Shown here in pieces: positions 8,165-54,375 of a stretch of 64,000 nt of DNA. The notes beneath the pieces were generated by a model. It worked only from the letters and a program-made list of their open reading frames with translations, was not told the DNA's origin and did not search any database. The stretch covers positions 1,979,813 through 2,043,812 of the forward strand of contig JBMNEH010000001.1 in assembly GCA_050948665.1 (NCBI GenBank), in the 5' to 3' direction. The stretch comes from Christensenellales bacterium (GTDB lineage: Bacteria > Bacillota > Clostridia > Christensenellales > UMGS416). A program made the translations under genes and the position numbers. Every line of letters begins with the position of its first letter. Within the stretch, counting starts at the first letter, position 1.

Positions 8165-8330
8165 GGGATTATCCTCCTTTATGCCCGTTGTACATGCTGT
8201 CAGCCATAGATGCCCGTTGCACATGCTGTCAGCCATAGCGGACCGCAAAGAATTAGCGTCAGAATCGTCAGGAATTCCATATAGGCAGCCGCTCTGTGCC
8301 ATCGTCTTCGTTTCGGCATGAAATCCCCTC

Positions 8331-21635: not shown

Positions 21636-21659
21636 GGGCCTTGCCTCCTTTCTTCCCGC

Positions 21660-25494: not shown

Positions 25495-25887
25495 TTAGAT
25501 TTCAAAGTCCGCGGAGCAGTCCGCTTCCACCGTAAAGGGCATATAGGAGGGTGCGATAGACTGATGACAATCAATATGATGTTTGCCGGGTGTCAGGCCG
25601 CCTTTTTTCATGACCGTTACGGTAGCGAATTCACCAAATTCCCAGCGATACTCCGGGTCAATCACCGTGCGACATTCGTCCAGTGTGAACATCTCCTCAT
25701 TGACTGTCAGACGCACATCCTCCCGGTCTGCCGTCTTTCCGTCCACAACTACTTTAATGTCTCTCAGGATGGACAAAGTGAAAGAGCGGTAATACTGAGC
25801 TTTGATCTCAAAGCTGTAACCGATGATCTCACCGTCGCGCAACACATTCATAAATGCGTTTGGGTTAAAATACTTTCTTCCGATCAT
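25495..25887 (-). CDS. DUF6379-like small protein, a candidate C-glycoside deglycosidase beta subunit (DgpB-like)
   Basis: 130 aa. The pattern F..N....G.I.GY......YYRS..LS.......VDG....ED......E.FTL.E.......RWEFGE.ATV.V.K.GGL..G.H......SY.PF matches my recollection of CGD beta subunits. RBS GGGAGGAACGTC-ATG. Confidence 0.55.
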   Translation of the reverse strand: MIGRKYFNPNAFMNVLRDGEIIGYSFEIKAQYYRSFTLSILRDIKVVVDGKTADREDVRLTVNEEMFTLDECRTVIDPEYRWEFGEFATVTVMKKGGLTPGKHHIDCHQSIAPSYMPFTVEADCSADFEI

Positions 25888-26064: not shown

Positions 26065-28464
26065 TCAGGAATACTGGCAGGTTAAATGGACATAAGTGAT
26101 CTCGTTGGGTTCCATGGTGATATCGAATGACAGCCTCCCGTTATCAGCATCCAGCCGCTTCATTGCCATTCCGGGGGTCACGATGCGGCTTAAATACCGG
26201 ATCTCGTCCCGGCTCATTTCCTCGGGGCTTGACATGGACACCCATTCATCCTGAAGGCTGCCGCTGCGTTGGTTTACCGTCAACCGTTTAAGTAGGTATG
26301 TCCCGCCCGCTTTGCCGGGCAGGGAGAAATGGATGCTTCGCTTTTTGACATCCTCAAAAAGATTGTTTTGTTCCGAAATCGGGATCTCACCCTCCCGCAT
26401 CAGCGAGTACCTGTGGCTCATATTCTTCAGGTTATGGCATACGATGCGCCAGTTGCCGGAACCATTGTCGGTAATGATATAGCAGTCTTCCCGCCGGTAC
26501 ACATATCGGCCCAGATGGTTCATGAAATCAAATGCGTAAAATGCCGGCTTTCGAATACCGTCGCGTGATAACAAGCCGCCTCCGCCGTACAGGATGGATC
26601 GCGTATCTGCGTAGGCGCTGTACAGGTCGGTTCCGACCCAGTAGCCCATCACATCCGCAAGATCAAGGCTCTCCAAAATATCCCGGACGAGATATGCACC
26701 CTTCATGCAGCTGTCGTTCAGACTGTTCCGGCTAGAGATGGAAAAATTCCACTCGGACACATGCAATTCCTTGTCTGTGAATCCCTCTTCGTCCATGGCG
26801 TCCCGCACAAAGTGCAGGGAGTTATGCAGCAGATTGGCCGCCCGGCTCTGATTTCTGTCCCTGTCCATGGTATACAGTGTATAGGGATAGCAGTACAGGG
26901 AAATAAAATCCGGATGCTGCTCTTTCTTTTGCCATGCGCGCAGCAGCATTTTGACCTGCTCGCCGCCATAGCGCATGGTCAAACCGCCGCCACCCAGTTT
27001 CGCGCCGGGACACAATTCCCGTATCTGGGCCGCAGCCACGTTGAATCTTTCCAGATACCGTTCCCCCATAGACCTAACCAAATCAGGATCCTCTATGGTC
27101 CAGTTCTGCTCGCCTTCCGCGCACCAAATCTCAAAATACCAGCTTTCCAGCTGCTCCGCGCTGTATCGGTTCATCAGATGGATTAACAATCTACGCATAA
27201 AATAACGGATGCTGTCCGCGGATTCATCTACCTGCGCTTTGTCCGTATGGATGACATCAAAGGCGTCGCGCAGCAGAAGCTTTGGTTTGGGACGCAGCTC
27301 GATATAGGGCTTCATGCCGTTTTGAAGCAGGAAATCGATGACCTGATCTAATCTGTTGAAGTTGAAGCCGGTCTCTACGTCACCCAACTGCATTCCCGCG
27401 GAATGTATATCCCAGAACCGCACATACTCAAAATGGAGCTCCTGCTTTAAAAGTAAAAGGTGTCTTTGGATATCGGACTGTAACAGGTCCTCCGCCGTAC
27501 CGATATTGATCATCCGGCACCAGTTGCGCTTAAGCAGCCGCTTAGTGGCGCTTTCTAGCGTAACGGCATGCGTCAACTGATTGACATGCTTTGTTTCCGG
27601 GATAAAGTATCGGTCGAAATGCTGTTCCAGCCGCTTGCGGGTATCCGTTTGTGAGGTTTCGTTCTGGGTCGCTGGACCATGCTGACTGATCCACTGACGA
27701 CGGTATTCCGTCGGGGTCATATTATAAGTCTGCTTGAACGCCTTGTTCAGCGCTGCTGAGGAAGCAAAGCCAGCCTCCGTAGCGATGCGGACAACAGAAA
27801 GATCCGAGTGAAGCAACTGAGAAACCGCATAATTCAATCGCACCTTGCTCAGATACGCGGCAAAGCCCATGCCGAAGTGCCGTTTAATATATTTGGAAAG
27901 ATAAGTGTAACTCAAATACGTCCGCTTGGCCAGATCCTCCAGGCGAATGGGCTTATCAAAGTTCGTCTGTATGAAGGCGGCGATCTCATGTTTTCTGGCA
28001 TCGAATTTTTGGGTCTCCTCCGGGTAATGATCGTTCTCCCTGTTTAAAAGGAAATCTGTGGTCAAGATGTGTAAAAACTCATAGAAAAGGCTGTTCAGGT
28101 AGATAATGTCCTTGCCCTGTCCGTAATACTCTTCGAAAATGATTTTGCGGAAAATGCGGCGGAGTTCTTCGCAGCCCTCCGTATTTCCGTCGGTGGTGTT
28201 GCACCAGAAGAGCACCATATCCTGCTTCATCAGGGAGCAAAGCCGGGAATAGGAAATGTGGAGAGTGACCCCCAAAAAATCTCCTTCCGAAAGGTAAGCG
28301 TGGTTTTTATCCGCGTTTACCAACAGAAAGTCATCCTTATGCAGACGGCACCGCTTGTCCTCCAGTGTAAACACAGTCGTTCCGTCCAGAACGTAGAAAA
28401 ACTCGATGTCTGTATGGGAATGCATAGACGACAATGGCTGAAAAACGAAAGAAAACGTAAACAA
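26065..28464 (-). CDS. One-component regulator: cupin + AraC HTH fused to a GH39-like domain
   Basis: The N-terminal cupin (HSHTDIEFFYVLDG) and AraC HTH (LEDLAKRTYLSYTYLSKYIKRHFG...IATEAGFASSAALNKAFKQTYNMTPTEYRR) are followed by a roughly 500-aa GH39-type barrel (EYVRFWDI...YFEIWCAEGE...LHVSEWNF). The start is set at the TTG at 28464 behind GAGGAGG; the ATG at 28425 is an alternative. Confidence 0.7.
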   Translation of the reverse strand: MFTFSFVFQPLSSMHSHTDIEFFYVLDGTTVFTLEDKRCRLHKDDFLLVNADKNHAYLSEGDFLGVTLHISYSRLCSLMKQDMVLFWCNTTDGNTEGCEELRRIFRKIIFEEYYGQGKDIIYLNSLFYEFLHILTTDFLLNRENDHYPEETQKFDARKHEIAAFIQTNFDKPIRLEDLAKRTYLSYTYLSKYIKRHFGMGFAAYLSKVRLNYAVSQLLHSDLSVVRIATEAGFASSAALNKAFKQTYNMTPTEYRRQWISQHGPATQNETSQTDTRKRLEQHFDRYFIPETKHVNQLTHAVTLESATKRLLKRNWCRMINIGTAEDLLQSDIQRHLLLLKQELHFEYVRFWDIHSAGMQLGDVETGFNFNRLDQVIDFLLQNGMKPYIELRPKPKLLLRDAFDVIHTDKAQVDESADSIRYFMRRLLIHLMNRYSAEQLESWYFEIWCAEGEQNWTIEDPDLVRSMGERYLERFNVAAAQIRELCPGAKLGGGGLTMRYGGEQVKMLLRAWQKKEQHPDFISLYCYPYTLYTMDRDRNQSRAANLLHNSLHFVRDAMDEEGFTDKELHVSEWNFSISSRNSLNDSCMKGAYLVRDILESLDLADVMGYWVGTDLYSAYADTRSILYGGGGLLSRDGIRKPAFYAFDFMNHLGRYVYRREDCYIITDNGSGNWRIVCHNLKNMSHRYSLMREGEIPISEQNNLFEDVKKRSIHFSLPGKAGGTYLLKRLTVNQRSGSLQDEWVSMSSPEEMSRDEIRYLSRIVTPGMAMKRLDADNGRLSFDITMEPNEITYVHLTCQYS

Positions 28465-28545: not shown

Positions 28546-28590
28546 TCAAAAAGCAACCGGGATCCAGCGTTCGCGCCGGATCCCGGTTGC
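28546..28590 (-). terminator. Rho-independent terminator of the Gfo/flavoprotein unit
   Basis: A perfect 13-bp stem, gcaaccgggatcc/ggatcccggttgc (28553-28590), with a 12-nt loop, followed on the minus strand by TTTTTGATG. Confidence 0.75.
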
Positions 28591-28592
28591 GA

Positions 28593-29597
28593 TTATTTCA
28601 GTTTTACGTTATGATGCGCGGTCTCATCTACAGGCCAGGGAGGTCGGTCAAAATCCGCAAAGGGCTGTTTCAGCTCCTTCAGATTCCGGATGGTACCGGA
28701 AGGCTGGGCCTGGGTCTTGATTTCGATGGAATGTTCCAGCTTGCCGTCCCAGCGCAGGCGGCTGCGGTCCAGCTCCTCGGGGACATATTCCACATGGATT
28801 CTGCCGTCTATGATCTGCAGGCTGCCTCGGATACCGCAAACAACGCAATCCACGGATCGCCTGTCACGGGAAACCTGCAAGAGACGGGTATGGCAGACAG
28901 GGCAACACCCCTCTTCATCGCCCCGCCATGCGGTCCTCTCTTCCTCGGACTCGGCGTTGACGGAAGCGACAATGTTCCTGCCGACTTTTTTCATGCGTTC
29001 CATCATGACGGGGTTGCCTGCTACGTTCTCGAAAGCCATTGCGCCGTGGTACTCTACGGTGTCCACCACATCGATCCCCAGAGGGAAAGTGAACTCAAAC
29101 ATCATGGGCAGCGTCAGCACGATCCAGTTCTCAGTCATGGCACCGCCGACCGAGATGAGCGCCGCGCTGCGCTTTTTGAAAGAGCGGATGTCAGGCAGTT
29201 TCTCTTCAGGCAGGCCTGCCGCAAGTCCTTCCTCATATGCGGCCTTTCGGAAGGTGATGTCATGGCTGGGGCCGATGCGGTCGCAGACGGTCTTAAAGCG
29301 CCCGGTTACTGAAGTTTCATAGGTGGGGCATGCCAGGATTACCGCATCGGATTGCATGATGCTCTCGTCCAAAATGTCAAAATCGTCATGTCGGACGCAA
29401 TAGCCCCGCCCTCTGCCGGTCATCATGCCCACAGTGCAGGCGATACAGCCAGTGCAGTTGGAAATATTCAAGTCGTCCGCCCGCAGAAAAGCGGTCTCGT
29501 ATCCCGCTTCCTCACAGACCATCAATGCCTGTTTGACCATAACGTCGCAGTTGCCCACCTTTCTGCCAAAAGAGACTCCCAGTACTTTTTTAGCCAT
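28593..29597 (-). CDS. Iron-sulfur flavoprotein (Isf / NADPH-dependent FMN reductase-like) with a C-terminal zinc-ribbon extension
   Basis: The start is set at the ATG at 29597 (MAKKVLGV) behind AAGGAGA. It has a flavodoxin-like fold with the compact cluster motif CTGCIAC...C. The C-terminal half contains CCPVC...CVVCG. Confidence 0.6.
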   Translation of the reverse strand: MAKKVLGVSFGRKVGNCDVMVKQALMVCEEAGYETAFLRADDLNISNCTGCIACTVGMMTGRGRGYCVRHDDFDILDESIMQSDAVILACPTYETSVTGRFKTVCDRIGPSHDITFRKAAYEEGLAAGLPEEKLPDIRSFKKRSAALISVGGAMTENWIVLTLPMMFEFTFPLGIDVVDTVEYHGAMAFENVAGNPVMMERMKKVGRNIVASVNAESEEERTAWRGDEEGCCPVCHTRLLQVSRDRRSVDCVVCGIRGSLQIIDGRIHVEYVPEELDRSRLRWDGKLEHSIEIKTQAQPSGTIRNLKELKQPFADFDRPPWPVDETAHHNVKLK

Positions 29598-29734: not shown

Positions 29735-30844
29735 TTAAAAGAAGACCTCTTTTCCGATTTCGGCGGAGTGATAGATCGCGTCCAGGATCTGTGTGACAAC
29801 GAATGCCTGCTCGGGCCTAACCAGCGGCTCCCTGTCATTGAGAATGGCATCCAGCCATTGGTCCTGCTCGCGGACCGCTTCCGCAGCGGCGCCTCCCTCA
29901 AAAAAGTCGACCACCCCTGCGGGGGATATGGTCTTCTCCATCAGCTGACCATGTTCAACGGTGTTGTAAATCAGTTCATCCCTGGGATAACTGCCGCCGT
30001 GGCGAATCTCCGCGCCGGCTTTGGTACCGCACAGCGTGGTGGAAGCCTCCATGGATTTGAGAATATTCAGCGCCCAGCTTGCTTCCAGAAAAATGGCGGC
30101 GCCGTTTTTCATTTTTATCAAGCCAAAGGCGGAGTCCTCCACCTCAAAGGTCTTGGGGTCCCAGGGACCGAACACGTTTCCGTCCGGACCGTGTTTCTCC
30201 CGCCCCAGCTTGAAAAAGACCTGCCCGCTAACCGATGCCGGCTCATAATTGTTCATCATCCACAAGGTAAGATCCAGCGCATGGGTACCGATGTCGATCA
30301 AAGGACCGCCGCCCTGCAGCGCTTTATTTGGAAACACACCCCAGGTAGGAACCGCGCGGCGGCGCAGAGCATGGGCTTTGGCAAAGTAGATGTCACCCAA
30401 CTCGCCAGCCTCACAGGACGCGTGAAGAGTCGTAGTGTCGTTGCGGAAACGGTTCTGGTAACCGATGGTAAACTTCTTGCCAGACTTTTTCCATGACTCG
30501 ATCATTTTCGCGGCGCTCTCCGTATCGTGGGCCATGGGCTTTTCGCACATAACATGCTTGCCCGCCTCGAAGGCAGCTACGGTCACCGGGCAATGAACAA
30601 CATTGGGCGTGCAGACATGGACCGCGTCGGTCTCCACGGTCTTGTCCGCCAGCATTTCGTTGTAGTCGGTATAGCACTTTGTGCCGGGTACGCCGTACTT
30701 CGCCGCGGCCTTCTCCGCACGCTCTGGCAGAATATCGCAGAAAGCGACCATCTCACAGCGATCGGAAAATTTCGCGAGAGAAGGCATATGCTTCTGGTTG
30801 GCGATGCCGCCGCAGCCGACAATCGCAATTCTCACTTTTTCCAT
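29735..30844 (-). CDS. Gfo/Idh/MocA family oxidoreductase (second copy)
   Basis: VRIAIVGCGGIANQKH..., EKPMAHD, GGGPLIDIGTHALD. Confidence 0.8.
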   Translation of the reverse strand: MEKVRIAIVGCGGIANQKHMPSLAKFSDRCEMVAFCDILPERAEKAAAKYGVPGTKCYTDYNEMLADKTVETDAVHVCTPNVVHCPVTVAAFEAGKHVMCEKPMAHDTESAAKMIESWKKSGKKFTIGYQNRFRNDTTTLHASCEAGELGDIYFAKAHALRRRAVPTWGVFPNKALQGGGPLIDIGTHALDLTLWMMNNYEPASVSGQVFFKLGREKHGPDGNVFGPWDPKTFEVEDSAFGLIKMKNGAAIFLEASWALNILKSMEASTTLCGTKAGAEIRHGGSYPRDELIYNTVEHGQLMEKTISPAGVVDFFEGGAAAEAVREQDQWLDAILNDREPLVRPEQAFVVTQILDAIYHSAEIGKEVFF

Positions 30845-31029: not shown

Positions 31030-31434
31030 TCAGATTATCTGCGCAAACGCTATGACGTAATCTCCCTCCCCGGCGATACTGACAAGAAGCTCCCTTCCCC
31101 CTGTCCGATCCAATACCGACCGAAGAGCGGCGGAGTACAGGATCATCGGGCATCCATCCTCCCGCTGCAGCGTTTCTACGATGCGCAAATCGAAAAGATT
31201 TGTCTGCTTGCAAGAAAGCGCCTTATAAACCTCCTCCTTTACCGCGAACCGTCCCGCAAAAAAACGCCAGTAATCCGCGGCATGCGCCGCCAGGGCAAGC
31301 TCCGCCGGCGTAAAGGTCCTCCGAACGAAGGCGCCCCCTAGGCGTTCGTCCATCGCGCGCAAGTCGGAAACGTGCACGCAATCGATGCCGACGCCTTTGG
31401 GCGTGTACTGCGCGTCGACCCAGTCCTTCAGCAT
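31030..31434 (-). CDS. acpS: Holo-ACP synthase (4'-phosphopantetheinyl transferase, AcpS type)
   Basis: 134 aa with GIDCVHVSDL...FTPAE...FAGRFAVKEEVYKAL and the C-terminal SIAGEGDYVIAFA. TAATG overlap with the upstream gene. Confidence 0.75.
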   Translation of the reverse strand: MLKDWVDAQYTPKGVGIDCVHVSDLRAMDERLGGAFVRRTFTPAELALAAHAADYWRFFAGRFAVKEEVYKALSCKQTNLFDLRIVETLQREDGCPMILYSAALRSVLDRTGGRELLVSIAGEGDYVIAFAQII

Positions 31435-32438
31435 TACGTTTTATTCCCCGCAGCCCGCGCGGCAGAGATTACGATATTGCCCTTGATTTCCTCTAGAGGT
31501 GCGCTGCGGGAACAGTCGCATACGATGCCGCGAAAGCCCTGCAACATGGGACCGTAGGCATTGGCACGGCCGAACAGCTGAATGAGCTTCACCGCGATAT
31601 TGCCCGCGTTCAAATCGGGCCATATGATTACATTCGCCCTGCCCGCCACCGGGGACAGCCTGCTGACCTTCTTTTGCGCCACCGCGGGGACAATGGCGGC
31701 ATCTAGCTGGAATTCGCCGTCGATGGCAAGATCCGGCCGCAGCGCGTTGGCGATTGCGACCGCTTCCCTTACCCTGTCGACCTTCTCCCCTTGTCCGGAG
31801 CCTAAGGTGGAGTAGCAAACCATGGCGCATCGGGGCTCCCAGTCCAGCAGCTCGCGTACCGTGTCGCAGGCGGAGATTGCGATGGAAGCCAGCTGTTCGG
31901 CGTTGGGATCGGTGCATACCGCACTGTCGCCCACTGCCAGCAGACTGCCCTCGCTGCCTTCATAGCCGGGGATATCGCATAGCCCGATGGAAGAAACCGT
32001 GGTAATGCCGGGTCTGAGGCCGATCATCATCTGACCCGCCAGCAATACCTCCCCCGTGCTGTTGTCGATGCCCGCGAAAGTCACGTCCACATCCCCGACC
32101 GCCTGCATCGCCATGGCAAAATATAGCGGATTTTCCATCCGACGGTGCAACGCGTTCGCTTTGAGTATCCTGCCGGGCTGATTCACATAGCGGTCAATCA
32201 GCGCGACCCTGTATGCGGTGTCATGGATGTCTGCGAAGCTGAATACGGAGGTGTCATAACCTCGGCGGGAAGCCAGGGCGCACAACGCGTCGGCGTTGCC
32301 TACCGGCACGGGGACGATCAGCCCCTCCCGTCCGGTTTCATAAGCCGCCCGCATCATCTTTTCGTTTGCAGCCTCGGGGAATGCAACTCTCTGGGGACGT
32401 GAACAGGCTTTTTCGTACAGCCTGCCAAATATGTTCAT
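31434..32438 (-). CDS. Phosphate acyltransferase of the Pta/Ptb family
   Basis: RVAFPEAANEKMMRAA..., ...RANVIIWPDLNAGNIAVKLIQ...AYGPMLQGF...DCSRSA, typical PTA_PTB motifs. ATGA overlap with the ACP stop. Confidence 0.8.
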   Translation of the reverse strand: MNIFGRLYEKACSRPQRVAFPEAANEKMMRAAYETGREGLIVPVPVGNADALCALASRRGYDTSVFSFADIHDTAYRVALIDRYVNQPGRILKANALHRRMENPLYFAMAMQAVGDVDVTFAGIDNSTGEVLLAGQMMIGLRPGITTVSSIGLCDIPGYEGSEGSLLAVGDSAVCTDPNAEQLASIAISACDTVRELLDWEPRCAMVCYSTLGSGQGEKVDRVREAVAIANALRPDLAIDGEFQLDAAIVPAVAQKKVSRLSPVAGRANVIIWPDLNAGNIAVKLIQLFGRANAYGPMLQGFRGIVCDCSRSAPLEEIKGNIVISAARAAGNKT

Positions 32439-32677
32439 GACAGTTCTTTCTCAACCAGGTCAATGATCTGGCCGATGGTTGCGCACACTGAGGCGTCCTG
32501 CAAAGCGATCATCACATCCAACTCGTTCTCCAACTCCGAGATCAGTCCGACCATTTGAATAGAGACACCCTTCAGATCATACTTGAAGGAAGTGTCTGCC
32601 GTCAGCCCGGCGGCCTCCCTTCCGTAGACCATGGCGACCGTTTCAATCACCTTTGCTTCCAGTTCTTTGTGATCCAT
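32435..32677 (-). CDS. Acyl carrier protein-like (80 aa)
   Basis: Four-helix ACP-like length and pattern, with a candidate phosphopantetheine serine in DLKGVSIQMVGLISELE (VSI in place of the canonical DSL). Confidence 0.6.
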   Translation of the reverse strand: MDHKELEAKVIETVAMVYGREAAGLTADTSFKYDLKGVSIQMVGLISELENELDVMIALQDASVCATIGQIIDLVEKELS

Positions 32678-32702
32678 ACCCTAACACACCTTTCTTGTAT
32701 GA

Positions 32703-33110
32703 TTACTCGTCCAAATCAAATACGACGGTCTTATACCCGTTCCGCTGAAAAATAGCCGCCCTGATCCTAATCGGCAGTCTCTTTACCAGGTCGTCCCGGT
32801 TCTTCCTGCTGATGCCGCGAACCACGGCATTCAGGCGGGCGCCTTCCTTAAGCACCACCTCTCCGTAGGCATACCTGCCCAGTAGTCTGTATTCCGGCTT
32901 GGAGGATAGAGCTGCGGGCAGAACGATGGAGTGCATCGCAGCCTCACCGTCGATCTCCACCCATTCCATTTCAAAGCATCCGCAGGTGTTGCAGGCATAC
33001 ACAGGCGGAAACTCCACAGCCCCGCATGCGCGGCACCTTCGGCCGGTGATTTTTCCCTCTTCCAGATTCTGATAAAATCGCTCCACTACTTTTTCCAACT
33101 TGATGCTCAT
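32703..33110 (-). CDS. DUF35 Zn-ribbon / OB-fold protein (thiolase partner)
   Basis: CRACGAVEFPPVYACNTCG rubredoxin-like ribbon followed by an OB-fold-length C-terminus. It lies 13 nt downstream of the thiolase-like gene. Confidence 0.7.
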   Translation of the reverse strand: MSIKLEKVVERFYQNLEEGKITGRRCRACGAVEFPPVYACNTCGCFEMEWVEIDGEAAMHSIVLPAALSSKPEYRLLGRYAYGEVVLKEGARLNAVVRGISRKNRDDLVKRLPIRIRAAIFQRNGYKTVVFDLDE

Positions 33111-33123
33111 ATTCCGCTCCTCC

Positions 33124-34461
33124 TCAGTTCACGGTCCTCAGAATGATGGCGCACACATTCTGGCTTCCGCCATAACCCCGCAGCATGGCGGTACGGGGCA
33201 GCTTTTTTACCTGCCGTTCGCCGCAGGCGCCGCGCATTTGCATGCAGGCCTCGTACACGTCCGCCAGGCCTGAGGCGGCATGCGCATGGCCGAAGGAGGT
33301 GCGTCCCCCATTGGTATTGATGGGTTTATCGCCGTCATATGCGGTGCGCCCCTCGCAAATATACTTCCAGCCCTCGCCGTAGGGAAGGTATCCAGCGATC
33401 TCCGCAGCGTACAGGTGGGAAGTGATGATGAAGTCGTTCGCAAAAAACAGATCCAGTTCCTCGGGTTTTACGCCGGTAAGCTCGTAGACCTGGCGCACCG
33501 CCTCTTCTGTGGCTCGGATTTCGAAATGGGGGTTGGTAGCCTCGCAGGCGGCGGAGCCGATACCCAAAACCTCAATCGGCTTATGGGTCAGCTTGCGGGC
33601 GATTTGGGGGATTCGGTCGGTAGCGCAGACGATCACGGCGGCGGCGCCGTCGCACTTTCGTTCTATGCCCTCCATCCGCAGCAGGTCGCCCATCTTCGGA
33701 TTGTAAGGGGAACGCATATAGTCCATCACATCCTCAAAGCCCCTTTCCGCGGCGATCTCAGCAAATTCCTTTCTCTCCAAAGCCAATGGATTTTTTGCGG
33801 CGTTGCGGCGGTTGTTGATCGCCATCCAATTCAGGGTGTCGTCCATCTGCTCAGGCGTTATGCCGCGGGTGCGGACATAATCCTCCGCCACATCATCGTA
33901 GATCAGGTTCATGGGTGCCATAAGGGAGCGGGCGTAGTTGCGGTCATACAGCCACATGGTACTGGCCAAGAACCGGTCCATGGGCATCTTTTCCCTTTTA
34001 TAAGGGTGCTTAGGAGTTTCTATAGTATCATCGGGACCGAAAGGAGCGGGAACGGAGTCGCCGAATTCCACGCAGCCCGACAGCACGCAGTCATATTTTC
34101 CGGAAGCCACGACGTTGACCGCCTGCTCGATTGCCAGGTAACCGGTGCAGCAGGCCTCCGAATGATGGATGGATCCCTTGCCCCTCATGCCGAACCAGTT
34201 GCCGATTTGGATATTCGGGGTCAGGTAGTTGGAACCGTTCAGGGGGCTGGCTTCGCCATGAAAATAAAAGCTCACATCCTTGGGGGTCACACCTGCGTCC
34301 TCCATGGCTTTGAGCGCCACATAGCCGAACAGTTCTCCCTCGGTCAGGCCGTTGGTCTCCTCGTGATCCACGGTATACATAAAGGGTGTGCACCCCGCCC
34401 CGATGATGGATACGCTTCTGGCATAGGGACGAATCTTAGTTCGGTTTACATAGTTTTGCAT
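33124..34461 (-). CDS. SCP-x/nonspecific-type thiolase-like protein
   Basis: Nucleophile context HHSEACCTGYLAIEQA, the C-terminal NTNGGRTSFGHAHAASGL motif and GYGGSQN. 445 aa. Confidence 0.75.
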   Translation of the reverse strand: MQNYVNRTKIRPYARSVSIIGAGCTPFMYTVDHEETNGLTEGELFGYVALKAMEDAGVTPKDVSFYFHGEASPLNGSNYLTPNIQIGNWFGMRGKGSIHHSEACCTGYLAIEQAVNVVASGKYDCVLSGCVEFGDSVPAPFGPDDTIETPKHPYKREKMPMDRFLASTMWLYDRNYARSLMAPMNLIYDDVAEDYVRTRGITPEQMDDTLNWMAINNRRNAAKNPLALERKEFAEIAAERGFEDVMDYMRSPYNPKMGDLLRMEGIERKCDGAAAVIVCATDRIPQIARKLTHKPIEVLGIGSAACEATNPHFEIRATEEAVRQVYELTGVKPEELDLFFANDFIITSHLYAAEIAGYLPYGEGWKYICEGRTAYDGDKPINTNGGRTSFGHAHAASGLADVYEACMQMRGACGERQVKKLPRTAMLRGYGGSQNVCAIILRTVN

Positions 34462-34493
34462 GCAATACTGCTCCTTTCGCCGCGGGCGGTCTT

Positions 34494-35603
34494 CTATCCT
34501 TGCTTGTCAATTTCCTCGGGTGTCCATACGGGCCTGCCTGTATAAACCTTAGCGGTTTCCTCCCCACTGAGTACGCGGGCGGCGCCGGCGGCCATGGCTT
34601 CCAGCTCAAATTCACCAGCATACACATAAACCGGGGCAATCCAACTGCAGGCTTCCGTGATGCCGACTGTCAATTTTGCGCTGTGCGCCATGCCGCCGCT
34701 CAACAGGATCCCGTCGACCTTTCCGTGAAGCACACCCGCCATGGCGCCGATACAACGGATGATCTGATAAACCATGGTGTCCCAAACCAGCGCGGCGTAT
34801 TTGTCCCCCTGTTCGATCATACCAAGCACCTCCCGCGCGTTAGAGGTTCCCAGATGGCTGACAAAGCCACCGGAATGGGTACACAGGCTCTTTATCTCCT
34901 CCTGGTCGTGGCTGTAGCTGTAGTCGATCAACCCGGAAACAGGCAGCGCGCCGCAGCGGGTCGGCGTCATGGGCCCTTCGCCGCCGACGGTATCAAATCC
35001 GTCGATCATACGCCCCCTTTCGTGGGCAGAAACGGAAATCCCGCCGCCGACGTGACAGCCGATATAGTTGCACGATTCGTAAGTTCTTCCCCGGGCGATA
35101 CTATGCCGAATGGCGGTTTCTTTCATATTCAGCGCGTGGAGATGGACGTTCCGGTAGATGCCCTTTACGCCGGTCATGCGAGCGCAAAGGGTCAGCTCAT
35201 CGGTGTCGGGTGGGTTCAGGATAAAGCAGGGTTTTCCGTACTGCAGTGCAAAGCCGTACGCCAGCTGCGGACCCAACTGCGCCGGGTGCTGGATGCCGTT
35301 TGCCCCCCGGGTGGCGTCAGCCAGCAGAATATCGTTGATCTCGTATACGCCGCCCTCCACACTCAAAAGCCCGCCTCCCCGTCCCACAAAGGCATCCATG
35401 GAAGAGAGATCGACCCCCGCCTTCTCCAGCGCGTTTAGAACGGTCTGCTTCCGGTAGGCCAGTTGTGCGGAGATCCCACCAAACCCTGCAAGGCATTCCG
35501 CTTCGTGTGTTACGTTTATGGAAAATATTTCCCGTTTTCCATGAAACACGCCGATCTTTGTGGATGTGGATCCGGGGTTGATTGCGAGAATTGTGAATAC
35601 CAT
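34494..35603 (-). CDS. buk: Butyrate (short-chain acyl) kinase
   Basis: ILAINPGSTSTKIGVF..., ...FVGRGGGL..., HLGTSNAREV. The start is set at the ATG at 35603, 7 nt after GGGAGGG. Confidence 0.85.
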   Translation of the reverse strand: MVFTILAINPGSTSTKIGVFHGKREIFSINVTHEAECLAGFGGISAQLAYRKQTVLNALEKAGVDLSSMDAFVGRGGGLLSVEGGVYEINDILLADATRGANGIQHPAQLGPQLAYGFALQYGKPCFILNPPDTDELTLCARMTGVKGIYRNVHLHALNMKETAIRHSIARGRTYESCNYIGCHVGGGISVSAHERGRMIDGFDTVGGEGPMTPTRCGALPVSGLIDYSYSHDQEEIKSLCTHSGGFVSHLGTSNAREVLGMIEQGDKYAALVWDTMVYQIIRCIGAMAGVLHGKVDGILLSGGMAHSAKLTVGITEACSWIAPVYVYAGEFELEAMAAGAARVLSGEETAKVYTGRPVWTPEEIDKQG

Positions 35604-35851
35604 GTATGACCCTCCCAAACAATTTCCGATTCTACCATGGAAATAGGATCTGCCGTATGCTTTTCAAATTTGGTGCGAAATGAACTTTATTTTTATGATT
35701 ATAAAACATGCAAAAGAATAAAGCAAAATATACTCTGGAAATGAACCCGGCCTACACCGGCTGAGGGCGGATAAAGAAGTGTGCCCGTATATTCGGGAAA
35801 CAATGATCCGATGCGAACCCCGGCCTACCTGCTTCGGTTGCAAGAAATATT

Positions 35852-37132
35852 CTACTTTCCCTCCCGCTCCATGGTGGGGGTAATTCCGTAGGTTTGCCGA
35901 TAGACCTTGCTGAAATAGGCAAAACTGTCATAGCCGCATTGGATGGCGATTTCGCCGATGGAGAATCTGGATTTTTGCAGGAGCTTTCGTGCAAACTCCA
36001 TCTTGATTTTTGTGATCAGCTCCTTGCAGTTGAGATCTTCCAGTTCCTTGATCACATGGCTCACATAACCCGGCGACATATGCAGATCCTCCGCGATTTG
36101 GGTGCGAGTAATGGGTTCTGCCATATGCTCTTCGATATACCTGCAGATCTGCGCCAGATGTTGTCGGTCCCTCTGTTTCATGGAATCGATTTCCCAAGAA
36201 AAGGGCTTCGGCTTCACGGGAAGCAGACAAACAGCGCCGGAATCATGGGACAGCCCGAATTCGATCTCCTCGCTGCGCAAGGAGGAAAGCGCTTCCCGGA
36301 TATGCTGAAAATCCGTACCGCAATACAGCATCCGCGCCGCGCAGCCGATCTCCGCCTCCGACGCATCATAAACCTTTTGCAACGCCTGTTCCATCCGGTC
36401 CGTCAGCGGCGCAAAGAATACGGTGAAGAAAACATTCTCCTGAGGAAACCAGGTAATCCTTGCCAGCGACTGGCGCGGCAGAACAGTATCCAGGAGTTTC
36501 CGATACAAGCTTAGGATCGCCACAGGCTCTAACGGGATTCGGTGCCAGCTGCGGATATGTCCATAGAGTATGGTGCAGGGATCATCGCGCTTGCAATGCA
36601 GGCTCATCCGGCTCAATTGGTTGATTTGGCCATCCAACAATGCGGGCTGCAAAAAACTTTCCTGATAGGTCGGCCAGTTTTCAAAGATAGACTGCGCCGT
36701 GGCGTTGATAACCGCAAAATCCTGTCCACGATAACGGATCAGCTCCTCGCTGCGGCTGCGCGCACTGCGGTTTGCCACCGCCTTGCGCACAGCTTGAATC
36801 ACGTCCTCGTACCGGGCAGGCTGTAGTACATAGTCGGACACCTTCAGAGAAATTGCCTGTTTGGCATACAGAAAGTCCGCATGGGAAGTCAAAAGGATAC
36901 ACTCTGTATCTGTCACCCGCTCTCTCACCCAGGCAAGAAGCTCCAGCCCGCTTCCGCCGGGCATTTCGATATCGGTGATCAGTATATCCGTTTTTTTTTC
37001 TCGCAGGATCGCCCGCGCTTCTTCGGCGGACCCAGCTGTGAACACCTCTGATATGCCCAGCTTGCTCCAGGGGATACAGGAGACAAGGGAGGTCAGAATG
37101 TTGGGTTGATCGTCAACCAGCAGTATGTTCAT
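35852..37132 (-). CDS. Response regulator with AraC-type output domain (YesN-like)
   Basis: Receiver domain NILLVDDQ...DILITDIEMPGGSG, plus a C-terminal AraC HTH (IAEDLHMSPGYVSHVIK...IAIQCGYDSFAYFSKVYRQTYGITP). Confidence 0.85.
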   Translation of the reverse strand: MNILLVDDQPNILTSLVSCIPWSKLGISEVFTAGSAEEARAILREKKTDILITDIEMPGGSGLELLAWVRERVTDTECILLTSHADFLYAKQAISLKVSDYVLQPARYEDVIQAVRKAVANRSARSRSEELIRYRGQDFAVINATAQSIFENWPTYQESFLQPALLDGQINQLSRMSLHCKRDDPCTILYGHIRSWHRIPLEPVAILSLYRKLLDTVLPRQSLARITWFPQENVFFTVFFAPLTDRMEQALQKVYDASEAEIGCAARMLYCGTDFQHIREALSSLRSEEIEFGLSHDSGAVCLLPVKPKPFSWEIDSMKQRDRQHLAQICRYIEEHMAEPITRTQIAEDLHMSPGYVSHVIKELEDLNCKELITKIKMEFARKLLQKSRFSIGEIAIQCGYDSFAYFSKVYRQTYGITPTMEREGK

Positions 37133-37154: not shown

Positions 37155-38771
37155 CTATCGGGAGTCTTCCGGCCGAATAGGAAAATGGATCTCCACCACA
37201 GCGTGGGTTTTGTCATTGCGGAAGGTGATGCCTGCCCGGTCGCCGTAGGCCAGCCACAGGCGGTAGCGTACGTTTGCGATGCCAATGTGCTCCTTTCCAT
37301 AGTACATTTGCGAGGGATCGGCGTTGTTCAGCGCTTCCAGAGACTCCGCCGAGAAGCCGCTGCCGTCGTCCCGGATCGAGAGCTCCGCGAAGGGCTCGCC
37401 CTCATCTGACAGCTTCAGTTTCGCTTCGATACGAATCTCCAGCAGATCGTTTTGCCTGCTGTGCTTGATGCTGTTCTCCAGGAAGGTAAGCGCCAGCATA
37501 GGCAGACAGAGCGCGTGCAGCGTCTCGCTTTCCAAGTTAAAGGACAGTCGAAGCTGCCGCCCCATCAACTGACAGAGCTGCGCATATCCCTGCACCGCCG
37601 CAAGCTCCTCCCGCAGAGTAAGGAAACTGCGGTTGTCCTGAAAGAGATATCGCAGATAATCGGACATGAGGAACACCATCTCCTGGATCTTCCCGTCTTC
37701 GTGGATCGACGCCAATGCATTGATATTTTTCAGACAATTTAAATAAAAGTGAGGACGGATCTGCAGCTGGAAATATTGCAGCTGCGCCTGCGCCGCATCC
37801 AGCTGACTCTTGATGCGCTGCAGCTGCGCCGCCTGCATATCGTCAAGCATTTTATTGAAGCCGTCGTAAAAGTCATTGATCTCTTTCATCGAGGACCTTT
37901 CCTCGATGCGGTAGGCGGTATCCTCTTGGGAGATCCGACCGAATGCCTCCCATAGCCGCCGAAGGGGCTCGATCAATTGCTTCTGCATAGCCCGTCCTAC
38001 CAGAAGGATTGCGGAGATAAGGATCACGATCAGGATTGATATGAGTAGCTGCGTGGCATTGTAGCCGCGCAAGAAAGCGGAACGGTATTCCCGCATCACG
38101 ATTTGCATGGGAAAATATCTGAATTCCTTTGCGCTGATGTATTCGGTCGATCGCGCGTCTAAAGGAAGAAACTGCAGGTCGTGGGTTCCGTCTACGGAAG
38201 CCGTGTAGGCCTGATAGCTTTCGTTGCAGCAGGGATCTGCCAGCACGGCAAGGGTGCCGTGCCGGTTTCGGTAATAGGTCACCGCCAGTGTTGTTTCTTC
38301 CAGCGGGATCAATGCGTGAGCGGTCATCCCGGCGCCGGCTGGTTTACTCGCCTCAAAAGTCAACAGTGCGTAAATCTCGGGCTCGATCGGCTGCAGATTG
38401 GTGAAATAGTAGCGGTCACATGCAGCGTTGTACAACACAAAACCGATGATTTCCGGAAAACCGGAAAATGCGTCGCGTAACTTACCGTTCATGAGGGTGG
38501 CGTATTTGGTGACCCGTTCCGCACCGGAGGAATTGCAAAAGACAAGAAAATCCATGCTGTCCACACAACCCTGGACATTTCCGAAGGCCCGCAGCAGAGA
38601 GTCTTCCACGGAAGAAACGATCATGCTCTGGTTGCTGCCGATCATATCCAAATTGCTCTGTTCCATGGTCCGGATCATAGAGTTGTGCAAAAACAGCAAT
38701 AGAATAACACAGGGTATGGTGATCCCCAAAAATGCCGCCCACAGAGTCTGAAAGGGCTTACGTCGTTTCAT
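37155..38771 (-). CDS. Sensor histidine kinase (YesM-like, HisKA_3/His_kinase-type)
   Basis: The start is moved to the ATG at 38771 (MKRRKPFQT) behind GGGGAGGA. It has two TM segments flanking a sensor domain, a HAMP-like region, QIRPHFYLNCL (H box) and the ATPase motifs NSIKHS...DDGSGF. Confidence 0.8.
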   Translation of the reverse strand: MKRRKPFQTLWAAFLGITIPCVILLLFLHNSMIRTMEQSNLDMIGSNQSMIVSSVEDSLLRAFGNVQGCVDSMDFLVFCNSSGAERVTKYATLMNGKLRDAFSGFPEIIGFVLYNAACDRYYFTNLQPIEPEIYALLTFEASKPAGAGMTAHALIPLEETTLAVTYYRNRHGTLAVLADPCCNESYQAYTASVDGTHDLQFLPLDARSTEYISAKEFRYFPMQIVMREYRSAFLRGYNATQLLISILIVILISAILLVGRAMQKQLIEPLRRLWEAFGRISQEDTAYRIEERSSMKEINDFYDGFNKMLDDMQAAQLQRIKSQLDAAQAQLQYFQLQIRPHFYLNCLKNINALASIHEDGKIQEMVFLMSDYLRYLFQDNRSFLTLREELAAVQGYAQLCQLMGRQLRLSFNLESETLHALCLPMLALTFLENSIKHSRQNDLLEIRIEAKLKLSDEGEPFAELSIRDDGSGFSAESLEALNNADPSQMYYGKEHIGIANVRYRLWLAYGDRAGITFRNDKTHAVVEIHFPIRPEDSR

Positions 38772-39052: not shown

Positions 39053-40039
39053 TTGTACACAAGGAAGACGGTAAAACCGGACAGGCCTCCCGCCCCGAAG
39101 GGGTATATCATCGGCGGCGGGATTCGTGCGATTCCGCATAATCTGTTGCTGGATATACGGCGCAACAAGCTCGTATATCTGCTCCTCTTGTTGATTCTGG
39201 CTTATTTCGTGATCTTCTGTTATATACCGATGGGCGGGCTGGCTATGGCGTTCGAAAAATATTCTCCTGCCAAAGGCCTGTTCCGCAGCAGGTGGGTGGG
39301 CCTGGATAATTTCCGGACCTTCTTCGGCGGTCCCTACCTCAAACGGCTGATCCGCAATACCGTGGCGATCGGTCTTTTGGATTTACTGGTCAATTTCCCC
39401 GCCCCGATCATTTTTGCGCTGATCCTGAATGAGATCAAATGGAAGCCCTTCAAAAAAACGGTGCAGACCATCAGCTATATGCCCTATTTTATCTCTGCTG
39501 TCGTAGCGTGCAGTCTTGTGGTCATGTTCACAAGGGCCGGTGGCGCCATCTCCGAAGCCGTATCATTCCTCACCAACACGGAGGGACGGAATCTTTTAAA
39601 CGAGAAGCAGCTCTTTTGGCTGATTTATGTTCTACAGAATCTTTGGCAGGGTCTGGGCTACGGTTCCATTATTTATCTTGCTGCGCTCAGCTCCGTCGAT
39701 CAGACACTGTACGACGCCGCCGTTATAGATGGTGCCAACCGTTGGGGTCAAACCATTCATGTTACTATTCCCAGCATCATGCCCATGATCATCATGCTGC
39801 TGATCCTGCGTATGGGCATGGTTTTCAACGTCGGTACAGATAAGATACTCCTGTTGTATTCTCCCGCCAACTATGAGTTCTCTGATGTCATCAATACCTA
39901 TGTCTATCGTCTCGGCATTGTGAATAACGACTATGGTGTTTCTACCGCGGTCGGCTTATTTAATTCCGTTATTGGTACCATCATGCTTCTGATTACAAAT
40001 AAAATCGCCAAGAAGTTGTCCGGTACCAGTATGTTTTGA
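39053..40039 (+). CDS. ABC transporter permease (LplB/YtcP-type polysaccharide/oligosaccharide importer)
   Basis: Six-TM MalF-like permease. RNKLVYLLLLLILAYFVIFCYIPMGG is an N-terminus typical of LplB. TTG start behind GAAAGGA. Confidence 0.75.
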   Translation: MYTRKTVKPDRPPAPKGYIIGGGIRAIPHNLLLDIRRNKLVYLLLLLILAYFVIFCYIPMGGLAMAFEKYSPAKGLFRSRWVGLDNFRTFFGGPYLKRLIRNTVAIGLLDLLVNFPAPIIFALILNEIKWKPFKKTVQTISYMPYFISAVVACSLVVMFTRAGGAISEAVSFLTNTEGRNLLNEKQLFWLIYVLQNLWQGLGYGSIIYLAALSSVDQTLYDAAVIDGANRWGQTIHVTIPSIMPMIIMLLILRMGMVFNVGTDKILLLYSPANYEFSDVINTYVYRLGIVNNDYGVSTAVGLFNSVIGTIMLLITNKIAKKLSGTSMF

Positions 40040-40056
40040 TGAGGTGGTAACTGCAA

Positions 40057-40941
40057 ATGGTACAAAAAGCGTCTCCTTCCCGGATCCTTTTTCTGATTGC
40101 GGTCGTGATCCTGCTGATCATCATTGCGCTAATATGCTTCCTGCCGATTTGGCACGTGATCATGGGCTCTATCTCCAATCCCTCTTACCTGACGGTCAAT
40201 AAGGGATTGATCCTGAAGCCCCTGCACAATGTAGACTGGAATGCCTACAAGATCATCGCCGGTTATCAACGGCTGTGGCGGGGCTACCTCAATACGATCA
40301 TCTATATCGTTCTGCAGTGTGTGGTCACCGGCTTTCTCACGGTCATTTCCGGTTACATTTTCTCCCGCAACAGATTCTTTTACCGCAACAGCTTCATGCT
40401 GTTCATCTCCTTCACCATGCTATTCAACGGCGGCATGATCCCACTGTATATGGTGGTGCGGAAACTGGGGATGCTGGATACCGTTTGGGCAATGATCATT
40501 CCGGGCGCGCTGAACGTGTTTAACATTCTGATGATGCGCACCTCCATGCAGGGCATCTCCGATGAGCTAGAGGATGCGGCGCGGGTAGACGGCGCAGGAG
40601 ATTTCGTGATCATGTTCAGGATTATACTGCCTCTGTGCAAGGCCACTTTTGCGGTAATCATGCTGTTCACGATCGTAGGGAAATGGAACGAGTATATGTC
40701 CGCGCTTCTGTATCTCCCCACTAAGACCGAATTATACCCTCTGCAGATGATTCTTCGTACCATCTTGCTGAATACTTCCAAAGAGATCACATCCTCTACC
40801 GATGTTTCCGGCGCCACCCTGTACGCCAGAAATGTGGAATTGGCGGCCATTGTGGTTTCCACCCTGCCGATTCTGTGCGCTTATCCCTTTGTACAGAAAT
40901 ATTTCGTCACAGGCGTGACGCTGGGCGCGGTCAAAAGCTGA
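40057..40941 (+). CDS. Carbohydrate ABC transporter permease (LplC/MalG-type)
   Basis: EAA-loop region DELEDAARVDGAGDFVIMFRIILPL. Confidence 0.8.
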   Translation: MVQKASPSRILFLIAVVILLIIIALICFLPIWHVIMGSISNPSYLTVNKGLILKPLHNVDWNAYKIIAGYQRLWRGYLNTIIYIVLQCVVTGFLTVISGYIFSRNRFFYRNSFMLFISFTMLFNGGMIPLYMVVRKLGMLDTVWAMIIPGALNVFNILMMRTSMQGISDELEDAARVDGAGDFVIMFRIILPLCKATFAVIMLFTIVGKWNEYMSALLYLPTKTELYPLQMILRTILLNTSKEITSSTDVSGATLYARNVELAAIVVSTLPILCAYPFVQKYFVTGVTLGAVKS

Positions 40942-41001
40942 ATTTACTCAATCAAAAGCCATAGTCCACCGGACTAAGGATAATAACAAGGAGGAAAACC
41001 A

Positions 41002-44637: not shown

Positions 44638-44709
44638 ACTGTTTTCTTTCTCGGCAGTCTCTCTTGAAACAACATGGGAGACCGTACTTTCAGTATCGGG
44701 AGGTTCGTG

Positions 44710-46314: not shown

Positions 46315-46329
46315 AGGAGGAAAACGGCC

Positions 46330-50016: not shown

Positions 50017-50114
50017 CGTGTTCCTTCTCCTTTCTGTAAACCGCATACGGCGGAAAATCGTAGGGCAGTCCATATTTCTGGCGTATATACAGCGCTCCGT
50101 CGGAAAGCAGTATG

Positions 50115-54345: not shown

Positions 54346-54375
54346 AAACACACTCTTTCGTTGCGAGGTGATTCC

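Follow-up and report, generated by a model that had tools for sequence, protein, structure and literature searches.

Several described systems each resemble part of the locus that we report here. Archaeal acetoacetyl-coenzyme A (CoA) thiolases (ACATs) and SCP2 thiolases combine the thiolase fold, a nucleophilic cysteine and a GH motif with an adjacent small DUF35 protein that bears a Cys4 zinc ribbon, and in the Pta-AckA and Ptb-Buk systems a phosphotransacylase of the PF01515 family is joined by a kinase; in fermenters, Pta and Buk normally run towards ATP. FakAB, PlsX and acyl carrier protein (ACP) interconvert free acid, acyl-phosphate and acyl-ACP without CoA, an established route (see, for example, PMC11586512 and PMC10449490). 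PhlACB of P. protegens (5m3k/5mg5) and MucABC of S. macacae (9vbo) contain thiolase and DUF35 subunits and have lost the histidine of the HDxF motif, and the thiolase subunits PhlC and MucB pass through an acyl-Cys intermediate, acting on phloroglucinol or tetramic acid (PMC12960953, PMC6392133). Finally, phloretin hydrolase (Phy) and dihydrophloroglucinol cyclohydrolase (DPGC) carry out the retro-Claisen cleavage of a beta-di- or triketone, the same chemical problem that we consider below (PMC10470551, PMC8398226). In a 64,000-nucleotide stretch of the genome of a Christensenellales bacterium (contig JBMNEH010000001.1; hereafter the window), six co-directional genes on the minus strand (31030-35603) encode, in order, a butyrate kinase (Buk), an SCP2-type thiolase, a DUF35 protein, an ACP, a Pta-like enzyme and an AcpS-type phosphopantetheinyl transferase (PPTase). 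Each of these proteins belongs to a known superfamily, and the combination is undescribed in the literature searched: a search of 8 million papers gave no description of a set made of an SCP2-type thiolase/DUF35 pair, a dedicated ACP, a Pta without its CoA arginines and Buk, which bears out the statement of an earlier reading of this DNA (the original prediction) that no characterised pathway with this gene set was known.

We propose, tentatively and as something a little short of probable, that this operon is a CoA-independent, carrier-protein-dependent module for C-C cleavage and ATP formation in the catabolism of polyphenols (flavonoids) by gut Clostridia. That its genes form one functional unit is supported by comparison across genomes, and the operon lies in a flavonoid and C-glycoside catabolic island, a setting that the original prediction missed and that gives the best clue to function; the ACP as thiol partner, the class of substrate and the direction of flux are what we infer from these observations.

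Organization of the operon

The operon begins with buk (34494-35603, minus strand, as are all six genes; 369 aa), whose product scores well above the butyrate kinase cutoff (TIGR02707, 359.6 bits against 289.1, residues 5-352; NF002834, 392 bits). Its start is an ATG, preceded at a distance of 8 nt by the ribosome-binding site GGGAGG, and the list of open reading frames (ORFs) reaches to a TTG at 35618. Next come the thiolase-like C-C enzyme of SCP2/ACAT type (33124-34461, 445 aa), which was recognised by Thiolase_C_1 (PF22691, 94 bits in Pfam), by its PDB matches and by an AF2 model, and its DUF35 partner (32703-33110, 135 aa), which consists of a Cys4 zinc ribbon and an OB-like C-terminal part (zf-ChsH2, PF12172, 32.6 bits in Pfam). 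These are followed by the dedicated ACP (32435-32677, 80 aa; PP-binding, PF00550, 32.6 bits in Pfam), the Pta-like phosphotransacylase (31434-32438, 334 aa; PTA_PTB, PF01515, 259.6 bits in Pfam) and, as an accessory member, the AcpS-type PPTase (31030-31434, 134 aa; PF01648, 55.6 bits). Profile searches with Pfam and NCBIfam confirmed all six family assignments of the original prediction, and its junctions also match the sequence exactly: from buk to acpS we read off gaps of 32, 13 and 25 nt, an ATGA overlap between the ACP stop and the pta start, and a TAATG overlap between pta and acpS. Shine-Dalgarno sequences were recognisable before most of the starts and were weaker at the two overlapping genes. 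Databases give these proteins generic names only.

Conservation of the module across genomes

We scanned one genome per species, which gave relatives in 234 stretches, and analysed the best 80 loci; counts are given over those loci that had enough flanking sequence (66 or 58, depending on the gene). Both the DUF35 gene and the ACP gene adjoined the thiolase gene in 66/66 loci, the thiolase-DUF35-ACP group being intact in all of them, while Pta was present in 61/66, and from these counts we conclude that the grouping is far beyond chance. Buk was found in 48/58 loci, either before the thiolase or after pta: it comes first in the lineage of the window and last in most Lachnospiraceae, and in most loci pta and buk are adjacent or close. 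The module has been kept across Lachnospiraceae and Oscillospiraceae with its gene order shuffled, and this variable order indicates selection on co-location and not shared ancestry alone. Together, these observations support the view that the genes are one functional unit. Of the original proposal of a six-gene unit, the single conserved unit therefore stands, whereas the full set of six does not, since AcpS was present in only 14/58 loci; what is conserved is a core of four to five genes, thiolase-DUF35-ACP-Pta, usually with Buk.

Homologues of the thiolase at 75-91% identity number in the hundreds and occur in gut metagenomes and in isolates, the closest being those of Faecousia metagenome-assembled genomes; carriers include Mediterraneibacter glycyrrhizinilyticus, Schaedlerella, Hespellia and Pseudobutyrivibrio. 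The module itself was found on hundreds of contigs from human, mouse and ruminant guts, and among cultured organisms in M. glycyrrhizinilyticus, M. faecis, Schaedlerella arabinosiphila and Petralouisia muris, which makes it directly testable. We also found a second, paralogous class of thiolase-DUF35-ACP, equally abundant and 51% identical to the first. At one locus (L070, 3200-9997), sets of both classes lie on either side of one Buk-Pta pair that they have in common, and a SnoaL-like protein is encoded between them; in M. faecis (L089, 2453-11743) a complete module is followed, after about 2.5 kb, by a second set, which has its own Sfp-type PPTase. Such paired sets look like a funnel into one ATP-forming pair.

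Some variants of the arrangement were also seen. At L063, a gene for a flavoprotein like flavone reductase (FLR), 76% identical to that of the window, is inserted between the DUF35 and ACP genes. A DUF2798-like membrane protein of 146 aa is encoded between buk and the thiolase gene at seven loci (L010, L012, L014, L017, L073, L080, L084); the gap between these two genes is only 32 nt in the window, at the place where its closest relatives encode this protein. One Logan contig (P0104, 7.7 kb) encodes a 592-aa protein with both Thiolase_C_1 and zf-ChsH2, which reflects either a fusion of thiolase and DUF35 or read-through across the 13-nt gap.

The thiolase lacks the HDxF histidine

The thiolase had its best PDB matches in archaeal ACATs, trypanosomatid SCP2 thiolases, BbsB, PhlC and MucB. 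At the head of these were the archaeal ACAT and SCP2 enzymes (E 1e-30 to 5e-18, TM 0.72-0.76), and similarity to PhlC, which ranked 15th, was lower (E 3e-13). An AF2 model built from 74 diverse sequences (pLDDT 93) had the thiolase fold and, when compared against the PDB with Foldseek, gave TM scores of 0.70-0.78 to the DUF35-associated thiolases 6et9_C, 7yvy, 3zbg and 7pxp. ACAT-like and PhlC/MucB-like relatives all fell within this range and were not separated, so that the structure adds no functional discrimination. In comparison with ACAT, the module thiolase has an insertion of about 60 residues around 136-200, where the pLDDT of the model is 66-86. The DUF35 protein matched ChsH2(DUF35), the archaeal DUF35 of 6esq and PhlB-type chains, and the four cysteines of its zinc ribbon were invariant in 49 homologues.

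Within a set of 49 family sequences (the window protein and 48 homologues), the nucleophile, Cys104 in EACCTG, which aligns with the CAS of 7yvy, and the GH motif, GHAHAASG, were both at least 90% conserved. At the position of the HDxF motif, two independent alignments placed N-D-F-I of the window protein opposite the HDAF of 7yvy and 4bia; this Asn was likewise at least 90% conserved in the family and was also found in the 51%-identical paralogue. When 1.84 billion cluster representatives were searched with the thiolase, only 86 were matched at E <= 1e-30, and in the nearest 50%-identity clusters the His position was occupied by N, T, P, G or C, with HDCF or HDAF only in distant relatives. 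In classical thiolases an Asn stands at the equivalent position, in the motif NEAF, which suggests that a role in the oxyanion hole may survive in the module thiolase and that the missing part is the acid/base. In DUF35-associated thiolases the histidine is reported to be indispensable: Claisen condensation depends on it (H284A), as does acetoacetyl-CoA thiolysis (H294Y), and the branch that gave rise to Friedel-Crafts C-acyltransferases is marked by its absence (PMC12960953). Because this histidine is absent, it appears doubtful that the module thiolase performs ordinary acetoacetyl thiolysis, and the thiolysis of a beta-keto thioester that had originally been suggested for it became doubtful with the replacement of His by Asn across the family. 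Loss of the acid/base would be expected if the carbon leaving group or nucleophile were a stabilised enolate or phenolate, and not acetyl-CoA.

In this respect the module resembles PhlACB and MucABC, which have likewise lost the HDxF His and whose acyl-Cys catalysis on stabilised carbon nucleophiles or leaving groups, namely phloroglucinol or tetramic acid, is of the kind proposed here, and phloroglucinol-type rings are products of flavonoid catabolism. The residue that replaces the histidine differs, being Asn in the module, whereas the H294Y mimic and Tyr298 of PhlC suggest a Tyr in PhlC and MucB. Furthermore, PhlACB and MucABC are biosynthetic and have no link to ACP, Pta or Buk, and no counterpart of their inactive HMGS-like subunit (PhlA/MucA) was found in the operon of the window or in the neighbour families that recur in the 80 loci. 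Unlike ACAT, in turn, the module has no HMGCS partner, and the thiolase is accompanied not by CoA-dependent partners but by its own ACP, a Pta-like enzyme and Buk.

A dedicated carrier protein and its phosphopantetheinyl transferases

The original prediction depended on a modifiable serine in the 80-aa ACP, and a candidate for it is present: Ser39, in L-K-G-V-S-I-Q, aligns with Ser36 of E. coli AcpP and does not vary among 47 homologues or in the paralogous class. The protein nevertheless falls below every NCBIfam AcpP cutoff (best 43.9 against 66). In the family, an acidic helix II comes after the motif G-[AV]-S-[VI]-Q, the DSL motif of AcpP is absent and the Asp before the Ser has been lost, and no fab genes were found near the ACP gene or among the recurrent neighbours of the 80 loci. 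The AcpS of the window exceeds the cutoff of TIGR00556 (56 against 45.35) and does not reach that of the equivalog_domain model TIGR00516 (51.2 against 59.8). An Sfp-type PPTase takes the place of AcpS at five other loci and at L089, and about one third of the loci have a PPTase of one or the other type. The invariance of the serine and the recruitment of two types of PPTase argue that the ACP is a real carrier.

The Pta-like enzyme has kept its catalytic residues and lost two CoA-binding arginines

The Pta-like enzyme scores below the curated Pta cutoffs (TIGR00651, 225 against 311; NF007233, 237 against 310), and PF01515 is its only Pfam match at E <= 0.01, the PlsX domain PF02504 (FA_synthesis) being absent. 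We aligned it to the enzymes of M. thermophila, P. gingivalis and S. pyogenes and use the M. thermophila numbering. The catalytic residues Asp307, Ser309 and Arg310 were kept in 47/47 members of the family, and in the same 47/47 the arginines of CoA site 2 were lost, Arg87 being replaced by Pro or Glu and Arg133 by Leu; the Pta beside the paralogous class-2 system has Asn and Met at positions 87 and 133. Among solved Ptas, Arg133 was present in all five that were aligned and Arg87 in the three that were part of the multiple alignment. These two arginines form CoA site 2, which is occupied by acetyl-CoA in the structure of the P. gingivalis enzyme, and their mutation acts mainly on the Km for CoA (PMC6461089). 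The recurrent neighbour families of the 80 loci also included neither an acyl-CoA ligase nor a CoA-transferase. Considering the complete loss of the arginines, the coupling of pta to the ACP gene and this lack of a recurrent ligase or transferase, the ACP is most likely the thiol substrate of the Pta-like enzyme, as far as sequence comparison can tell. The original suggestion that a Ptb acts on ACP in place of CoA thus gains support from the invariant ACP serine and from the loss of the site-2 arginines with the catalytic residues kept.

Both the PF01515 fold with Asp307, Ser309 and Arg310 and a Buk above its cutoff are features that the module has in common with Pta-AckA and Ptb-Buk, from which it differs in the low score of its Pta-like enzyme, in the missing site-2 arginines and in the coupling to an ACP gene. 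Compared with FakAB-PlsX, which it would resemble in function only, through the CoA-free interconversion outlined above, it has no PF02504 protein, its kinase is Buk and not FakA/FakB, its partner is a thiolase and not phospholipid synthesis, and its chain length is presumably short. Judged on its protein sequences, the module would be neither a canonical ACAT system (by its HDxF position), nor a canonical Pta (by cutoff and arginines), nor PlsX (by domain), nor PhlACB (by its third subunit).

Genomic surroundings of the operon

Downstream of acpS, on the same strand and separated from it by 185 nt in which no terminator was predicted, lies the gene of a DgpA orthologue, a C-glycoside 3''-oxidoreductase (29735-30844, -; PDB 7xr9, E 2.9e-164). 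Eight species (L010, L014, L016, L017, L027, L043, L068, L074) have DgpA directly beside the module on the same strand, and over the complete loci it adjoins the module in 6/58. It is followed in the window by a 334-aa homologue of FLR (28593-29597, -), whose only PDB match is 7d38 (E 1.2e-35), the FLR of Flavonifractor plautii (PMC7862272). In 28/58 loci, a gene for an FLR-like reductase lay no more than 8 kb from the module. A strong terminator (28553-28590), the only convincing one in the scan, follows the FLR homologue gene.

Further along the minus strand, Pfam and NCBIfam identified DgpB (CGDB; 25495-25887), a DgpC-like AP_endonuc_2 TIM barrel (24425-25483) and the second Gfo/Idh/MocA oxidoreductase of the island (23369-24421), which make up a C-glycoside deglycosidase set. 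Next to these is a trio of reductase genes (18370-23108, -), which accompanies the module in 14-17/80 loci. It consists of a VprA-like FAD_binding_2 reductase (21660-23108), for which the best family is the vinyl-phenol reductase VprA (279 bits, below cutoff), a GltD/NuoG-N-like Fe-S flavoprotein of 709 aa (19506-21635) and a NuoF-C/ferredoxin protein (18370-19593), as assigned by Pfam and NCBIfam. Two ORFs of the trio overlap by 88 nt as listed, and one of the starts therefore probably lies further downstream. Elsewhere in the window are an alpha-L-rhamnosidase (2333-4579, -), enzymes of the GH2, GH3 and GH5 families, a 250-aa ORF with only the N-terminal part of a GH3 (1603-2355, -), which is possibly truncated or frameshifted, and two tandem carboxylesterases of the COesterase family (44674-47943, +).

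Between the FLR homologue gene and dgpB the window encodes a 799-aa fusion of an AraC-type regulator (cupin and HTH_18) with GH39 (26065-28464, -), and homologues of this fusion adjoin the module in unrelated genomes (L003-L006, L009, L047, L061, L063, L068, L072, L089). A three-gene operon at 12931-16024 (+), encoding an Fe-alcohol dehydrogenase, an Amidohydro_2 protein and a URO-D-like protein, may serve the modification of phenolic or methoxylated aromatic compounds. Four ORFs of 404-852 aa had no Pfam match at E <= 1e-4 (5744-8302, -; 48778-50127, -; 52927-54141, -; 54361-56289, +).

To obtain neighbour families, we clustered every ORF of the 80 loci in an unbiased manner. The recurrent companions of the module were PucR, FLR-like reductases, a DUF1097 membrane protein (29/58 loci), the reductase trio and an SfMCT-type monocarboxylate transporter (16 loci; 423 bits in NCBIfam, above cutoff), with an MBL-fold protein, PPTases and DgpA as rarer ones. 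In M. faecis the class-2 system is followed by an MFS transporter, an enoate reductase (Oxidored_FMN and Pyr_redox_2), AraC-GH39, an FLR-like protein and a GPH transporter; the two domains of this enoate reductase are those reported for Fcr, the reductase that cleaves flavanones. According to published surveys, genes like those of FLR and Fcr are widely distributed, Faecalicatena being one example, whereas homologues of Phy occur in few species, mainly in E. ramulus, F. plautii and A. hadrus (PMC8398226).

Regulatory features

Directly upstream of the operon, and on the same strand, Pfam identified a YesN-like response regulator (35852-37132, -) and a YesM-like histidine kinase (37155-38771, -), in agreement with the YesMN-type system that the original prediction had placed there. 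No YesMN homologue stood beside the module in any of the 80 species loci (0/80), and we therefore rejected the idea that it regulates the module; its probable target is the divergent sugar ABC transporter encoded at 39053-42663. Relatives have a divergent PucR-type regulator instead (27/58 loci).

The 248-nt A+T-rich intergenic region upstream of buk (35604-35851, -) is the probable promoter/operator of the operon, as predicted from its sequence. It contains an imperfect 13-nt inverted repeat (35685-35723; CTTTATTTTTATG / CAAAGAATAAAG-like), which is a possible operator. An Rfam scan of the operon and its flanks found no family at threshold, and no riboswitch or leader; a match to Rev72 (22.6 bits against a threshold of 289) was far too low and was taken as chance. 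In a scan for promoters and terminators, promoter-like sites were no commoner than in shuffled sequence.

Proposed mechanism

In the mechanism that we propose, the glycosidases of the island, DgpA/DgpBC, and the FLR-like and other ene-reductases would convert flavonoid glycosides to a beta-dicarbonyl intermediate, for which the candidates are a (possibly ring-reduced) acyl-phloroglucinol or acyl-resorcinol of the dihydrochalcone type, dihydrophloroglucinol and 1,3-cyclohexanedione. The thiolase, held by DUF35, would then attack the carbonyl through Cys104 and break the C-C bond in a retro-Claisen reaction that leaves the enzyme acylated; with a stabilised enolate or phenolate as the leaving group, the canonical acid/base His would not be needed. 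From the enzyme, the acyl group would pass to the phosphopantetheine thiol on Ser39 of the ACP, the holo-ACP having been made by the co-encoded AcpS or, in other genomes, by a PPTase encoded elsewhere. Phosphorolysis of acyl-ACP by the Pta-like enzyme would give acyl-phosphate, from which the butyrate kinase would form ATP and the free acid, and in many relatives the acid is probably exported by the adjacent SfMCT-type transporter or the small DUF1097/DUF2798 membrane protein. Phy and DPGC are found in the same kind of neighbourhood (FLR, Fcr-like reductases, glycosidases) and belong to unrelated families; they use water and waste the energy of the bond, whereas the module would conserve it, first in a thioester and from there in ATP.

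Several points weigh against this proposal. Every step in it is predicted, down to the class of substrate, and the link to flavonoid genes, though frequent, is not universal, as seen from the counts for FLR-like reductases (28/58) and DgpA (6/58) and from L007 and L046, which are among the loci with unrelated neighbours. By sequence, archaeal ACAT (E 1e-30) is a nearer relative of the thiolase than PhlC is (E 3e-13), and given the equivalence of its Asn to that of NEAF, the loss of canonical thiolase activity is not proven by the alignments. Loss of the site-2 arginines lowers the activity of the P. gingivalis Pta only moderately (PMC6461089), so it is suggestive and not diagnostic of a changed Pta substrate. 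The score of Buk as a true butyrate kinase would suit a short aliphatic acid better than an aryl-propionate. Lastly, we put the thiolysis of a fully aromatic acyl-phloroglucinol to a thioester, in a rough estimate, at about 0 to +20 kJ/mol, which would make an aromatic dihydrochalcone a poor source of ATP; the proposal thus needs either a reduced beta-di- or triketone or strong removal of the product. We favour a non-aromatic substrate, namely a ring-reduced dihydrochalcone, dihydrophloroglucinol or 1,3-cyclohexanedione, which fits the many reductases of the island and the genuine short-chain butyrate kinase score. Of the catabolic scheme in the original prediction, the use of ACP as the thiol has gained support, and the thiolysis of a beta-keto thioester has become doubtful.

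Alternative explanations

The main rival has the same enzymes running in reverse, with Buk and the Pta-like enzyme activating a short acid at the expense of ATP, and the thiolase/DUF35 pair C-acylating a stabilised carbon nucleophile (a phenol, resorcinol, phloroglucinol or beta-dicarbonyl) in a reaction of Friedel-Crafts or Claisen type, so that an acyl-phenol or a modified polyphenol would result. Ptb-Buk does run in the activating direction in some Firmicutes, the monocarboxylate transporter beside the module in 16 loci could import the acid, and our rough estimate thermodynamically favours the acylation of aromatic acceptors. A thiolase without the HDxF His is also what the C-acyltransferases PhlC and MucB have; for enzymes of their type, acetyl-CoA and, going by the title of a cited work, other thioesters serve as acyl donors, and an ACP-dependent Friedel-Crafts acylase, SmzB, appears among the works cited in PMC12960953. 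We consider this direction unlikely nonetheless, because the context is one of catabolic glycosidases, reductases and PucR-type regulators, in which the spending of ATP would bring a fermenter no obvious gain, and because the recurrent neighbours include no polyketide synthase (PKS), nonribosomal peptide synthetase (NRPS) or tailoring genes and no PhlA/MucA-like third subunit; that two thiolase sets share one Buk/Pta pair at L070 also fits a funnel better than biosynthesis. A secondary-metabolite (PKS/NRPS-like) cluster was set aside for the same lack of such genes recurring nearby.

It is improbable, in our judgement, that the module is an ordinary 3-oxoacyl thiolase working with ACP, which would interconvert acetoacetyl- or 3-oxoacyl-ACP and acetyl- or acyl-ACP with no link to polyphenols and would lead, via acyl-phosphate, to short-chain acids in a butyrate-type branch or in FabH-independent priming. 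The best sequence and structure matches are indeed archaeal acetoacetyl-CoA thiolases, Buk is a bona fide member of the butyrate kinase family, and the Asn at the first position of the motif is that of NEAF in classical thiolases. Yet this explanation has to contend with a motif that provides neither the HDxF His nor a Cys acid/base (NDF against HDCF), with a C-terminal CxG position that, read by eye and with no formal alignment, seems to have no acid/base, and with the finding that mutation of the His abolished both thiolysis and condensation in related enzymes (PMC12960953). No reductase, dehydratase or enoyl reductase of butyrate or fatty acid synthesis and no fab genes were among the recurrent neighbours, the ACP is under all AcpP cutoffs, and the repeated co-location with FLR-like, DgpA and ene-reductase genes would be left unexplained. 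Quite improbable, too, is that the thiolase and Pta use CoA as usual and that the ACP and AcpS have a separate or structural role. ACP use by the module is deduced from sequence, the characterised SCP2-type thiolase/DUF35 pairs and Ptas met in our structure and literature searches use CoA or no cofactor, and mutation of the site-2 arginines has the moderate effect on Pta mentioned above (PMC6461089); but in 66/66 loci the ACP gene separates the DUF35 gene from pta, to which it is coupled in translation, the serine of the ACP is invariant, PPTases have been recruited twice independently, and no Pta of the family retains either of the CoA-binding arginines, while the catalytic residues have been kept. 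Finally, the substrate might come from the sugar side, with a keto-sugar (2-hydroxy-3-keto-glycal) released by DgpA/DgpBC and its diketo derivative cleaved by the thiolase to yield ATP. In keeping with this, at least 8 species have a DgpA orthologue directly beside the module on the same strand, in varied positions, the window has DgpB, DgpC-like and second Gfo/Idh/MocA genes, and Buk suits a short aliphatic acid. We rate it as highly improbable, however, given that DgpA adjoins the module far less often than FLR-like reductases do (6/58 complete loci against 28/58), that the known sugar product is an alpha-hydroxy-enone/1,2-dicarbonyl and no obvious retro-Claisen substrate, and that the paralogous class is linked to ene-reductases and not to Dgp genes.

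Implications for flavonoid degradation in the gut

Should carrier-protein-dependent C-C cleavage be the function of the module, it is possible, though on balance we think it unlikely, that this would be the first carrier-protein-dependent substrate-level phosphorylation, leading from a His-less thiolase/DUF35 pair via ACP and a re-tooled Pta to Buk, by which widespread Lachnospiraceae and Oscillospiraceae of the gut would draw ATP from flavonoid rings in replacement of Phy/DPGC. On the gene identity of resorcinol reductase and cyclohexanedione hydrolase, our literature search found only the phloroglucinol paper. The Pta-like enzyme would be a natural variant specific for acyl-ACP, and the thiolase/DUF35 pair would represent a further branch of a group whose Friedel-Crafts relatives are of biocatalytic interest. 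For the bacteria, the module would mean a new form of energy conservation, in which ATP is gained from C-C cleavage via an acyl carrier protein and not via coenzyme A. It would also supply a missing or alternative C-C cleavage step in the degradation of flavonoids in the gut, the process that decides which bioactive phenolic acids reach the host.

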